This document shows, in pieces, positions 2,055 through 29,874 of a stretch of DNA of 64,000 bases; positions within the stretch are counted from its first letter, which is position 1; each line of letters begins with the position of its first letter. A model generated the notes under the pieces. The model was given only the letters and a program-made list of their open reading frames with translations, was not told where the DNA came from and ran no database searches. The stretch is from Eubacteriales bacterium (GTDB lineage Bacteria; Bacillota; Clostridia; Oscillospirales; CAG-272): NCBI GenBank assembly GCA_045612715.1, contig JAZKZP010000125.1, forward strand, positions 9,943 to 73,942. The letters are read 5' to 3'. The translations under genes were made by a program, and so were the position numbers.

Positions 2055-4709
2055 TTACAAGGCATCAGAATCATCTGAATAATGAATGACAAATGGCAAC
2101 GGAGCAGGATTCTTATATATAGAAGAGTATATGCGATTCCATTGTTCATGGGTTCCAGTATACGTGATTTCTTTAATGCTGCTACACCCTGAAAACATCC
2201 AATCGCCAATTCTCTCTATAGAAAATGGGATTGTTACATTAGTTAAGCTTGCACATCCTTTGAATAGAGAGAAACCAACTTTTATTACAGAGTTTGGAAT
2301 CATAACATCTGTTAATTTTACACATCCCTCGAAAGCACTGGATCCTATCGTGTTTACACTGTTCGGCAAAATTATGCTTGTCAGATTAACGCATCCGTAA
2401 AAAGCACTATTGGCTATTTTTGTAACCCCCATTGGCACATGAAAAACAGATTGTGCAATTCCGGGGAGACATCTGAGTAAGGTTTTACCGTCATCAGAGT
2501 ATATTGCGTTGTCAATAACCATTAGGTGCTTGTTTTGAGGATCAATAGAAATTTTGTCAAGCTTGAGACATCCGCACAAAGCTTTTTCTGCAATTTTTTC
2601 AATCTTTTTAGAAATAAATAATTCAGTAAGCTCTGAGCAATTATCAAACCAATTTCCGAATTCATCAATGTCGGCATGCATATAAACACGTTTCAAGTTT
2701 TTACAATTATCAAATGCTGATGCTGCTATGTCATAAACCGTCTTCGGGATGGTTATTTCTGTAACCAGTGAATTTGCGAAAGCATTTTTACCTATCTTTC
2801 CAACTACAGAATTTCCAATTGTGGCCGGTATCTCAACAATAGAATCTGTGGATTTGAATTTTGTTATAATGATTGTATAATAATTCGACTCGTAATTAAA
2901 AATGTTTCGGCATGCTGCTTCTGTAAGGGGGGGAGTTAATATGGCTGCCGCCAATACGCCATCGCTATTTTGGGATACAAGCTTCTCCTTCAATAAATCA
3001 CATTTTTCAAATGCATTTTCATATATTAAAACCGAATCTGGAACGTTAATATCAGACAATGACAGACAACCGGAAAAAGCGCGGCTATGGATAGAACTAC
3101 ATTCAGACTGGGCATTAAACTTAATGCTAACCAAAGAAGAGCAATCACAGAATGCTTTTTCTCCAATTGTCTTAATGGAAGGCGGAATGGTTATAGAGCT
3201 TAATAATTTACAACCCGAAAAAGCGTTCATTTCAATGGTTTCGCAACGAGACTCACCTTCAAATGAAACTTCGCTTAAATTCAAACAATCCTTAAAACAC
3301 CCATGTCCTATAACTTTTACCGATGAAGGTATTATTACGTTTTTCAAATTGCAACAGTTGGAAAAAGCTGCTGAATTTATTTCTTCAACCGCCCCACCAA
3401 TTTTAACGGATTCCAGGTTTTCGCAATTTTTGAAGGCATTAAAATCAATTTTGTTCACATTGTCTGACATTTCGACATATTTTATGCTCGGATCATTAGC
3501 AAACGCCCCTTGGGGGATCACGCCCAATGGATTATCTATCCATATATATCCTGGCATATTTCTAAATGCATAATCATTGATATGACCTTCAATTATAGAA
3601 CACAACGTCGCGGGTATTCCATTCTCCTCAAGTTTATTAAGCGCATAGTCGAAATCATCCCAATGGGATAGCATCTTGATTTTTTGAAGCTTTATGGTGA
3701 AAGTATCACCTTTTCCTGCATTCAAAACTATACACCAACAGCCTTCAAAATCGGAAATATAACCTAGCGAAGCTAAAATCATGCTTTTTTTAGATTCGTT
3801 TTTTAATGTATGTGCTTTTCTGCTGATATAACTTTGTATTTGCTTATCTTCAATTCTATTGCACAAATCAGAAAAAACAGAGAAATTTCGTTTGATTTTA
3901 TCTGCCGAGTCCTCACAATCAATTGTGCAATAAGAGTCAAGAGTTCCCCTAATTTCACCGCCTGATGCCCCATACCAATCATAAAAATAATTTAGCGACC
4001 AGTAATGTTTACTTGCATCATATTGTGGAATATCTTTAGGATTAATGTTGTTCTTGAAGGTATATCCATAGTCATAAAAAAGTTCTTGAGGTTGATTGTA
4101 TATGGATATACCGAGAGCGGTTCTTTCTTCTTGTGTCAACATAAGACTTTTAATATATGCTTCTACTTTATATTGAAAACCGTATGCCACAACTTCAAAT
4201 TTCAATTCCCCGTTATCCCTTCTGTTAAACAAAGAATAAACTTCTTTGCGATTATCCGGAGGAATTTTTAAAACTTTGTCAAGTCCAGCTCCACAAACAT
4301 AATCTATTTTGTTACTATCGTGGGGAACAATAATAGCACCACATTTAGAGAGATTATCTTGCAAAGAAGTGGAGATGCTTCCGTCGTAACAAAAGGCGCA
4401 ACATTTTTTACCCTTTAAGTCCTCTACGGAAATATCGTTTTCCACGATATCAAAATATTGAGCAGGAGTAAGGATACCTTTTGAAACCAAGTAATCGGTT
4501 AAGGTTACATTTTTAGCTTCTTTTGCCCATTTTCCTACAGTGTCAAAATTTACTTCTCTGTTTTCTTTTTTTATTTCCGATAAAAAATAGACGGTTCTGC
4601 CTTGATATTTTTTCTGTAATTGATTGATTATTTCGTTAAGTTTATCCTCTGCAGAGGCAGTTCTAGGCAAAGTGCTTTTTACAACAATATTATTGCTATT
4701 TTGACTCAT
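2055..4709 (-). CDS. Cytosolic BspA-type leucine-rich-repeat (LRR_5) protein with a tentative BRCT-like segment in the N-terminal region (884 aa)
   Basis: The C-terminal half is built of ~23-aa repeats of the form IPxSVxxIGxxAFxxCxxLxxI (for example IIPSSVKVIGHGCFKDCLNLSEVSF). There is no signal peptide. The segment LKGKKCCAFCYDGSISTSLQDNLSKCGAIIVPHDSNKIDYVCGAG resembles the BRCT pattern (tentative). The N-terminal motif NVTLTDYLVSKGILT recurs in the C-terminus of the 777-aa paralog. Confidence 0.8.
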   Translation of the reverse strand: MSQNSNNIVVKSTLPRTASAEDKLNEIINQLQKKYQGRTVYFLSEIKKENREVNFDTVGKWAKEAKNVTLTDYLVSKGILTPAQYFDIVENDISVEDLKGKKCCAFCYDGSISTSLQDNLSKCGAIIVPHDSNKIDYVCGAGLDKVLKIPPDNRKEVYSLFNRRDNGELKFEVVAYGFQYKVEAYIKSLMLTQEERTALGISIYNQPQELFYDYGYTFKNNINPKDIPQYDASKHYWSLNYFYDWYGASGGEIRGTLDSYCTIDCEDSADKIKRNFSVFSDLCNRIEDKQIQSYISRKAHTLKNESKKSMILASLGYISDFEGCWCIVLNAGKGDTFTIKLQKIKMLSHWDDFDYALNKLEENGIPATLCSIIEGHINDYAFRNMPGYIWIDNPLGVIPQGAFANDPSIKYVEMSDNVNKIDFNAFKNCENLESVKIGGAVEEINSAAFSNCCNLKNVIIPSSVKVIGHGCFKDCLNLSEVSFEGESRCETIEMNAFSGCKLLSSITIPPSIKTIGEKAFCDCSSLVSIKFNAQSECSSIHSRAFSGCLSLSDINVPDSVLIYENAFEKCDLLKEKLVSQNSDGVLAAAILTPPLTEAACRNIFNYESNYYTIIITKFKSTDSIVEIPATIGNSVVGKIGKNAFANSLVTEITIPKTVYDIAASAFDNCKNLKRVYMHADIDEFGNWFDNCSELTELFISKKIEKIAEKALCGCLKLDKISIDPQNKHLMVIDNAIYSDDGKTLLRCLPGIAQSVFHVPMGVTKIANSAFYGCVNLTSIILPNSVNTIGSSAFEGCVKLTDVMIPNSVIKVGFSLFKGCASLTNVTIPFSIERIGDWMFSGCSSIKEITYTGTHEQWNRIYSSIYKNPAPLPFVIHYSDDSDAL

Positions 4710-29874: not shown

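Follow-up and report, generated by a model that had tools for sequence, protein, structure and literature searches.

Introduction

The closest described systems to the locus reported here are the vWA-MoxR ternary conflict systems, of which the main text of Kaur, Burroughs, Iyer & Aravind (2020, PMC7159879) sets out four types (VMAP, iSTAND, FtsH and beta-propeller), some ternary systems being linked there to radical S-adenosylmethionine (rSAM)-SPASM peptide modification and to a zincin-like peptidase domain. In this study, we analysed 64,000 nucleotides (nt) from a Eubacteriales bacterium (contig JAZKZP010000125.1 of assembly GCA_045612715.1, positions 9,943 to 73,942; this whole stretch is called the window and coordinates are counted from its first letter), in which genes encoding leucine-rich repeat (LRR) proteins of the Pfam family LRR_5 are interleaved with genes encoding a MoxR-type AAA+ ATPase (A) and a protein with a von Willebrand factor A (VWA) domain (V). 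The reading that we put forward, and to which we give about an even chance, is that these LRR_5 genes make up the portion that varies between strains in two conserved gene modules of gut Clostridia, cytoplasmic and apparently undescribed, that lie in a phage-defence island.

The locus shares with the ternary systems, as the main text of PMC7159879 presents them, a core made of a MoxR-type AAA+ ATPase and a vWA protein, a third component that diversifies, and strong variation between close relatives; the occasional association with an rSAM-SPASM system and with a zincin-like peptidase domain is a further common feature. It differs from them in its third component, here an LRR_5 protein with a new helical tail, often present in several copies. 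The architecture of V is fixed, with the zincin-like domain at the N-terminus and no swapped C-terminal effectors, and the locus has no effector-associated domain (EAD) or Death-like adaptor, its hosts being unicellular gut Clostridia. No LRR-type ternary system is found in that main text, where the term LRR occurs once, and a literature search retrieved no published link of LRR_5 or of DUF2201, the family of V, to MoxR or vWA.

An AAA_5-type ATPase that works with a VWA domain bearing a metal ion-dependent adhesion site (MIDAS) is likewise found in the chaperone pairs RavA-ViaA, NorQ-NorD and CbbQ-CbbO and in midasin/Rea1. The MIDAS of midasin grips a small conserved domain of WD40 repeat proteins and pulls these proteins off their complex. 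Midasin would be the best mechanistic analogy for a docking of the tail or of the N-terminal entry motif described below. The locus differs from the chaperone pairs in its neighbours, which are LRR_5/tail proteins, and no metalloenzyme or ribosome-assembly genes lie nearby. Regarding the repeats themselves, their type and fold are those of the BspA-like surface proteins (BspA, TpLRR, PcpA, HupY/LrrG; structures 4fs7, 4gt6 and 4h09; PF13306), from which the window proteins differ by the lack of an export or anchor module, by the helical tail and by the linkage to an AAA+/VWA pair.

Results

LRR_5 genes are linked to an AAA+/VWA gene pair

All genes of the window lie on the minus strand. Module 1 (2055-14231) is an operon-like array around A and V and comprises the following genes:

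2055-4709, minus strand: 884-amino acid (aa) protein, an orphan 390-aa N-terminal region followed by LRR_5 blocks; a strain-specific insertion
4934-5197, minus strand: 87-aa open reading frame (ORF), possibly a degenerate remnant of an entry-motif/544-like gene, with weak matches only
5210-6721, minus strand: A, a MoxR/AAA_5-type AAA+ ATPase with Walker A GAPGIGKT, Walker B LFLDEIN and a ~300-aa helical C-terminal extension
6795-8747, minus strand: 650-aa protein, entry motif, ~18 LRR_5 repeats and C-terminal helical tail (residues 520-650, nt 6798-7190)
8744-9238, minus strand: 164-aa helical protein, the end of its gene sharing 4 bp with the beginning of the 650-aa gene
9263-10897, minus strand: 544-aa protein, entry motif, LRR_5, helical tail (residues 177-277, nt 10067-10369), linker and second LRR_5 block
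10918-12333, minus strand: V, a DUF2201_N zincin-like all-alpha domain followed by a VWA domain (Pfam PF13203, PF09967)
12420-13214, minus strand: 264-aa protein, entry motif, LRR_5 and helical tail (residues 138-263; nt 12423-12812 correspond to residues 135-264)
13260-14231, minus strand: 323-aa protein, the first gene of module 1, entry motif and ~12 repeats, no tail

A promoter-like site was found upstream of the 884-aa gene (4923-4896); the whole promoter/terminator scan gave counts near the shuffle expectation and is not counted as evidence on operon structure.

One genome per species was scanned with A alone, which yielded 582 relatives, and the best 80 loci (56-71% identity) were analysed. 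These came mostly from Oscillospiraceae, Lachnospiraceae and Acutalibacteraceae, with one actinobacterial metagenome-assembled genome (MAG; 58% identity). V adjoined A in 72 of the 80 loci, and in 70 of the 80 the pair was flanked or separated by one to six LRR_5-like genes of the same strand (orders VLA, VAL or LVA). Pfam LRR_5 was detected in 61 of the 103 genes between or next to V and A, the other families among these neighbours being ankyrin (7), DUF4132 (4) and BRCT (2). The association faded with distance: 118 of 360 ORFs within 2.5 kb of the pair were LRR genes, against 6 of 193 at 5 kb or more. The partners resembled the window proteins in sequence, as their N-termini carried the same motif (MS..DFVIENGVL.KY.G....VVIP), and 142 of 147 LRR partners in other species had no N-terminal hydrophobic segment. 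LRR_5 genes with signal peptides were few and lay outside the arrays. Taken together, these results leave us highly confident that LRR_5-tail proteins are linked to the AAA+/VWA pair.

It should be noted that SbcC/SbcD genes adjoin the arrays in loci of four species (L003, L045, L090:1-1310 and L092:16319-20224), which may reflect a shared chromosomal hotspot or a functional link.

Features of the core pair

A matched the Pfam families AAA_5 (33 bits, cut-off 22) and AAA, and its score with bpMoxR (23 bits) was under the cut-off of that family (27). Among PDB sequences, its sole match was midasin, and this match was marginal (E 8.5e-4). For V, of which at least 8000 homologs exist, an AlphaFold2 (AF2) model compared with Foldseek showed a VWA fold and matched VWA domains only; searches of PDB sequences with V and with a V profile gave no match. 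The MIDAS site of V is intact, and D331-x-S333-x-S335, T400 and D429 are invariant in 65 homologs. The zincin-like site H79xxxH83C84xxxH88...C104D105...E109 is also invariant, and V probably binds metal, as judged from these residues.

No NCBIfam family was found for V or A, and phmmer detected no match between them and E. coli YehP and YehL. An exact-sequence database look-up of the A, rSAM and 544-aa proteins of the window returned no record. A phage or plasmid origin of the module was considered and rejected, as IMG/VR held 2 relatives of A and plasmids held distant MoxR proteins only.

Architecture of the LRR_5 proteins

An earlier note on this DNA, made from the letters alone, had described eight genes as an expansion of seven full-length LRR_5 paralogs and one fragment. 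All eight ORFs are present on the minus strand at the coordinates given here and for module 2 below. The seven long ones are LRR_5 proteins (Pfam E 1e-18 to 3e-167; 2e-101 for the 323-aa protein), and the 87-aa ORF gave no Pfam match. The latter scored 7 bits with the entry-motif profile (E 0.0075 among 19 proteins) and showed a 19-aa match to the 544-aa protein; it would be at most a degenerate remnant. A single local expansion is not what was found, since the paralogs are only 30-43% identical to one another and belong to two separate conserved modules.

The lack of signal peptides in the LRR_5 proteins was borne out: the maximum 12-residue hydropathy in the N-terminal ~40 residues did not exceed 1.4, and the ORFs begin at the first start codon after a stop, so that an N-terminal extension is impossible. 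Evidence of secretion and cell-wall anchoring, which the earlier note had named as an argument against its own view, did not appear, as these proteins have no export or anchoring signal and, in Pfam, no lipobox, choline-binding, LPXTG, type IX secretion system or other wall-anchor domain.

The shared parts that the earlier note had listed were for the most part recovered. A profile built from 40 entry motifs of other species matched over its full length at the N-termini of the 650-, 544-, 323- (residues 6-65) and 264-aa proteins, and matched again inside the 1834-aa giant protein of module 2 at residues 390, 711, 1116, 1265 and 1489. Five copies of the cap motif [EDN]SKP..W...W...V.W[GAS] lie in the giant protein, and one in the 951,077 residues of all other collected ORFs. 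The tail is common to the 650- and 264-aa proteins (39% identity over 129 aa, E 5e-30) and is embedded in the 544-aa protein (profile E 9e-15). A DYLV..GIL module thought to join the 884- and 777-aa proteins fared less well: it amounts to a 9-residue motif with 7 identical positions, the sequence on either side of it has 25% identity across 55 aa (E 0.045, database of 11 sequences), and jackhmmer from either side recovered no such link. What had been passed over is that the giant and 777-aa proteins share their N-terminal region (38% identity, E 1e-21), and that the LRR_5 genes are interrupted by those of the AAA+ ATPase, the VWA protein and the conserved 164-aa protein.

Pfam at E up to 5 gave no credible match for the non-LRR segments (884-aa N-terminus, 777-aa C-terminus, giant protein inserts, tails, and the 164-, 87- and 162-aa proteins). 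The N-terminal region of the 884-aa protein had no homolog in any collected set, and a BRCT domain suspected there by eye found no supporting match. The C-terminal repeats of the 777-aa protein recur in proteins of loci L005 and L067.

No Pfam, PADLOC or NCBIfam family was found for the 164-aa protein. Its homologs (48-93% identity) lie between LRR_5 genes in L003, L005, L008, L032, L081, L083 and L088; this helical family of 155-164 aa always stands between two LRR_5 genes, even at L088:5695-6162, where no AAA+/VWA pair is in view.

The helical tail is a Pfam-less domain family

Module 1 partners consist of an entry hairpin, an LRR_5 solenoid and, in most of them, a helical tail. This tail of ~110 aa is Pfam-less, and an iterated profile detected it in 133 ORFs from 68 of the 80 loci, most of the 12 tail-less loci being short contigs. 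A word-indexed homolog search with the three-tail alignment gave no match and an exhaustive search was required: with the three window tails as query against 1.84 billion cluster representatives, 318 proteins were retrieved at E<=1e-3 and 188 at E<=1e-10, in keeping with the earlier suggestion that the tail be sought as an independent Pfam-less family. When 95 tail representatives were scanned, LRR_5 was found in 89, BRCT in 6 and DUF4132 in 1. The family consensus reads entry motif, LRR_5, an 'AP..' helical tail ending in A..C.AFLL.WKN, linker, second LRR_5 block and GS.A..YAK, and the 544-aa protein has precisely this layout. D217, QKKK and WKN are among the conserved positions of the tail.

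For the 264-aa protein, AF2 gave a confident model (predicted local distance difference test score, pLDDT, 94), in which a beta-hairpin is followed by an LRR solenoid and by ~7 bundled helices (helices 168-263). In Foldseek, the LRR part alone gave matches, to TpLRR, 4gt6 and gut-bacterial LRR_5 structures. In a reverse test, tail proteins were picked regardless of V or A on contigs of ~10 kb or longer, and A and/or V were present at three of four tail loci (L090, L092 and L110).

LRR_5 genes are exchanged between sister strains

Two sister-strain loci were found through homologs of V, namely L081/L082 (V 95% identical) and L083 (V 81% identical). The DNA flanking the module is 92-97% identical in these strains, and the genes of the neighbouring Pbe-type defence cluster are 96-98% identical at the protein level. 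Change in the locus is fastest in the LRR_5 genes, and the invariance between strains that would have spoken against the earlier note was not seen, as slots are empty or hold unrelated LRR_5 genes. The 544-aa gene is 99.6% identical in L083, and its slot in L081 holds an unrelated 607-aa LRR_5 gene. In both L081 and L083, the slot of the 650-aa gene is filled by a 921-aa LRR_5+DUF4132 gene and a 318-aa orphan, the 921-aa allele being located as follows:

L081:13583-16348: 921-aa LRR_5+DUF4132 allele
L083:13605-16370: 921-aa LRR_5+DUF4132 allele

The 323-aa ortholog of L081 has 432 aa through a 109-aa repeat insertion, and L083 carries one 632-aa LRR_5 gene in place of the 323- and 264-aa genes. 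Neither sister strain has the 87-aa ORF or the 884-aa gene; the segment 5202-1881 of the window is missing from L081 and replaced in L083.

For the LRR orthologs retained in L081, the ratio of nonsynonymous to synonymous substitution rates (dN/dS) was 0.28 (323-aa) and 0.66 (264-aa), above the values of the neighbouring genes (Pbe cluster 0.03-0.11, V 0.12-0.19, A 0.07-0.12). Of the diversifying selection that had been proposed for recognition proteins, the raised dN/dS was thus observed and values above 1 were not. The module is a recombination mosaic, as seen from dS values between 0.006 and 1.2 along it. The LRR genes diversify chiefly through the replacement of cassettes and through recombination.

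In the 921-aa allele, the DUF4132 part has a match in E. coli YehI (E 1e-13). The gene yehI (L087) adjoins yehL (MoxR AAA+), yehP (VWA) and yehQ (SWIM), so that the yehF/H/I (WGR-DUF4132) and yehLMPQ genes resemble the present arrays in having paralogous DUF4132 proteins beside a MoxR/VWA pair. They differ from the window, whose scanned proteins have no DUF4132, SWIM or YehM-like match in Pfam. The Yeh system is uncharacterised and the comparison therefore carries no functional information. A Leptospira protein with WGR-LRR-DUF4132 architecture, LIC_12901, also has no signal peptide (PMC11674859).

A radical SAM/SPASM enzyme adjoins genes with a common N-terminal tag

Module 2 (21998-30956) consists of an rSAM/SPASM enzyme and two LRR_5 proteins that begin with the same 16-residue tag:

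21998-27502, minus strand: 1834-aa giant protein, N-terminal tag, five entry-LRR_5-cap modules (nt 25508-26335, 24899-25372, 23813-24157, 23078-23710 and 22619-23038), orphan inserts and C-terminal coiled coil
27541-29874, minus strand: 777-aa protein, N-terminal tag, one LRR_5 block (residues 178-290) and C-terminal helical repeats
29871-30956, minus strand: rSAM/SPASM enzyme, the end of its gene sharing 4 bp with the beginning of the 777-aa gene
27455-27502 and 29827-29874, minus strand: N-terminal tag MKIRTDFVTNSSSSSF of the giant and 777-aa proteins, respectively

The orphan inserts of the giant protein span residues 175-380 and 880-1100, and its residues 1615-1834 form a long charged coiled coil with a hydrophobic stretch (residues 1760-1778) that includes SFFTFLCTGIIFFI (residues 1760-1773).

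The cluster motif of the enzyme is C57-x7-C65-x6-C72, followed by GGRGDP. Its SPASM motif is canonical (C328x2C331x5C337x3C341), is invariant in 9 homologs and was recognised by Pfam (PF13186, 37.7 bits), the score with Pfam Radical_SAM (23 bits) being under the cut-off of 29.5. In NCBIfam, weak maturase matches only were obtained, and neither the enzyme nor the tag is in any curated family. A metagenome scan with the enzyme gave 12 loci, of which 11 were informative (L096-L106 are among the rSAM loci). In 10 of these 11 the enzyme adjoins a tag-bearing gene, with the start MKIR[TS][DG]FVTNSSS.S[FY]. On the Agrobacterium plasmid pAt2 (L107:4569-6002), an enzyme of 38% identity is preceded by a 132-aa ORF that starts with MKIKLDFVSNSSSTSF, and the pattern MK[IF][RK].[DG]FV[TS]NSSS.. 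covers both the metagenomic loci and pAt2. The pAt2 pair adjoins an SMEK-domain gene and an integrase.

When the N-terminal region of the 777-aa protein (160 aa) served as query, a word-indexed search gave 6 matches only. Across 16 tagged proteins (168-1834 aa), about half of which contain LRR_5, conservation was confined to the first 16 residues. Because only these residues are conserved beside the enzyme, the tag is likely a recognition or modification site, and the enzyme most likely modifies it post-translationally, as the gene pairing and sequence conservation suggest. The pairing recalls the SPASM maturases (anaerobic sulfatase maturase, anSME, and the maturases of ribosomally synthesised and post-translationally modified peptides), in which an rSAM enzyme is tightly coupled to genes with a short invariant sequence, and, as for anSME, a full-size protein whose motif contains Ser would serve as the substrate. 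It differs from them in the position of the conserved stretch, which here begins with Met1 at the very N-terminus of proteins (132-1834 aa) that are unrelated in the rest of their sequence, and in the cluster motif, CX7CX6C here and CX3CX2C in those maturases. Tagged proteins or rSAM fragments were found within the V/A arrays of L001, L027, L031 and L080; the rSAM-tag pair is a separate and possibly new observation.

Defence genes lie in or beside several arrays

A defence cluster lies between the two modules, and a DndB homolog lies at the far end of module 1:

1-1050, minus strand: DndB homolog, truncated by the start of the window, which aligns to the DndB region of the sister strains
14334-21674, minus strand: Pbe-type defence cluster, phosphorothioate-associated, with a 907-aa alpha C-terminal domain (alpha-CTD)/sigma region 4 protein, PbeA, PbeC and a 162-aa protein

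PbeA and PbeC were identified with PADLOC (E 3e-201 and 2e-76, respectively), and in all three strains the Pbe genes lie on one side of the AAA+/VWA/LRR module and DndB on the other. In other species, defence genes were found inside or beside the arrays:

L022:2780-4729: Septu-like PtuA/PtuB pair, between the V gene and the LRR and A genes
L011, L013, L018:5010-5939, L023:9090-9995, L088:1892-2794 and L110:9322-10215: AbiH-like genes (~300 aa) in or beside six arrays

The AbiH-like gene of L110 overlaps the start of the AAA+ gene, and no AbiH-like gene was found in the window.

Large proteins whose N-terminus resembles the alpha-CTD of RNA polymerase also stand beside the arrays of at least 4 other species, often with a helicase and with no PADLOC Pbe match:

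18951-21674, minus strand, in the window: alpha-CTD-like large protein
L004:13456-16389, L016, L067 and L092:1074-3797: alpha-CTD-like large proteins

Discussion

Gene content, conserved linkage, the lack of export signals and the variation between strains are what the data show; docking, remodelling, the recognition of targets, a defence role and the modification of the tag are inferred. The LRR_5 proteins would, in the mechanism that we propose, be interchangeable recognition subunits whose repeat surfaces bind variable targets. The conserved tail, the acidic entry motif or both would dock them to the MIDAS site of V, and the AAA+ ring of A would spend ATP to remodel, activate or strip the complex, by analogy with midasin and other MoxR/VWA pairs. 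The rapid turnover of cassettes and the location in a defence island suggest that the targets may be invader proteins, of phage or mobile elements. These two features, together with the likeness to the ternary systems, also suggest a conflict role, and module 1 would then be a fifth, LRR-based flavour of those systems. The full proposal, namely swappable LRR_5-tail sensor arrays that signal through a VWA-MIDAS/MoxR machine, immune-like and apart from STAND/NLR-type defences, with the rSAM enzyme modifying the MKIRTDFVTNSSSSSF tag, is tentative, and we hold it as a possibility short of even probability.

Several observations weigh against this proposal. In all 66 V homologs examined, a hydrophobic residue stands in place of the catalytic Glu of HExxH, which makes a protease effector or peptidase activity doubtful, and the zincin-like domain had no structural match in Foldseek or PDB. 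All 120 listed homologs of V consist of DUF2201_N and DUF2201 alone (421-505 aa), whereas the vWA proteins of described ternary systems swap effectors. The tail fold had no Foldseek match to any known structure, and at the tail locus L088 there is no V or A within its 10-kb contig. Most rSAM loci have no V or A within 8 kb, and the link between the two modules is therefore weak. In the LRR genes dN/dS is below 1, which falls short of demonstrating positive selection. Of 123 random flanking ORFs, about a dozen match PADLOC models at E<=1e-10, a figure with no background rate to set beside it, and V and A themselves match no PADLOC model. Both are 55-71% conserved across families and very common, which a housekeeping role would fit too.

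The LRR_5 proteins could instead be clients or cargo of A and V. In this view, the pair would be a chaperone dedicated to the folding, assembly or transfer of BspA-like proteins without signal peptides, and these clients may build a large structure in the cytoplasm or associated with the envelope, or be adhesins that take a non-classical route to the surface. MoxR/VWA pairs studied to date are maturation chaperones of specific partner complexes (PMC9976466, PMC3893208). The nearest solved LRR_5 structures are annotated as cell-surface, surface adhesins also diversify fast, and the giant protein has its short hydrophobic stretch near the C-terminus. We nevertheless judge this explanation unlikely, since signal peptides, anchors, transporters and membrane proteins are all missing from the arrays, partners are fused to domains of a typically intracellular kind (BRCT, ankyrin, DUF4132), and, as reported above, nearly all partners elsewhere are without export signals and the LRR_5 genes with signal peptides stand outside the arrays. 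A little less probable still is a role in housekeeping proteostasis or regulation, with LRR_5-tail proteins as substrate adaptors for the cell's own proteins and a variability that comes from relaxed constraint and repeat instability. The exchange of whole LRR genes between strains with ~95% identical flanks is hard to square with fixed cellular substrates, insertions of defence genes in the arrays recur, and the presence of the pair in the actinobacterial MAG suggests horizontal transfer; what speaks for such a role is, besides the PADLOC result, the very wide spread and strong conservation of V and A (dN/dS 0.07-0.19) and the many ordinary flanking genes (tRNA synthetase, UvrC, transporters).

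The view closest to the earlier note, a plain BspA-like paralog expansion by local duplication and shuffling with the AAA+, VWA and rSAM genes as unrelated neighbours, accounts for the entry motif, tail and cap that the paralogs have in common. Conserved synteny already contradicts it, given the V/A linkage in 70 of 80 species and the rSAM linkage in 10 of 11 loci, and so do the low mutual identity of the paralogs and the non-orthologous genes that fill allelic slots in sister strains; we consider it very improbable. We assign an equally small probability to an array of immunity proteins against polymorphic toxins. Signal-peptide-less repeat proteins in variable islands are typical of such arrays, and the present proteins are cytoplasmic, variable and arrayed; an Endonuclease_NS_2/YezG toxin-immunity pair and an FtsK/EssC gene even adjoin one related locus. 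However, no toxin gene is present in or next to the window array, and its constant AAA+ and VWA partners are not required by immunity arrays.

Signal-peptide-less LRR_5 proteins are among the most abundant unexplained families in gut Firmicutes and are routinely annotated as cell-surface proteins. Many of them now gain a genomic partner, the A/V pair, and a defining Pfam-less helical domain, which makes a testable three-component system. If the sensing of invaders proposed here is true, the arrays would represent an LRR-receptor branch of bacterial immunity, and this would explain why LRR repertoires differ between strains. DUF2201/COG3864 (at least 8000 clustered sequences) gains a working hypothesis, and a new radical SAM/SPASM family gains an unusually clear candidate substrate motif.

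Genomic surroundings of the modules

The GC content of the window is low (~36%). Its variable part is the left side (1-38.6 kb), inside which the LRR_5 genes lie, and the island extends through 31118-38593 with orphan genes and a zinc-ribbon protein. The right side (39-64 kb) holds galactan/galactoside genes, and the window is therefore chromosomal DNA, from a member of the Clostridia of gut or rumen. The other features are the following:

33932-34924, minus strand: WYL/WCX regulator, in the variable island
35407-36288, minus strand: AriA/PtuA-like AAA_15/21 ATPase, in the variable island
37324-38593, minus strand: DUF6036 nucleotidyltransferase and an overlapping helix-turn-helix gene, toxin-antitoxin-like
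39546-58406, minus strand: galactan/galactoside utilisation locus, with three glycoside hydrolases of family GH53, an ABC sugar transporter, an AraC regulator, a GH43, a GH2 beta-galactosidase and a MalK-like ATPase

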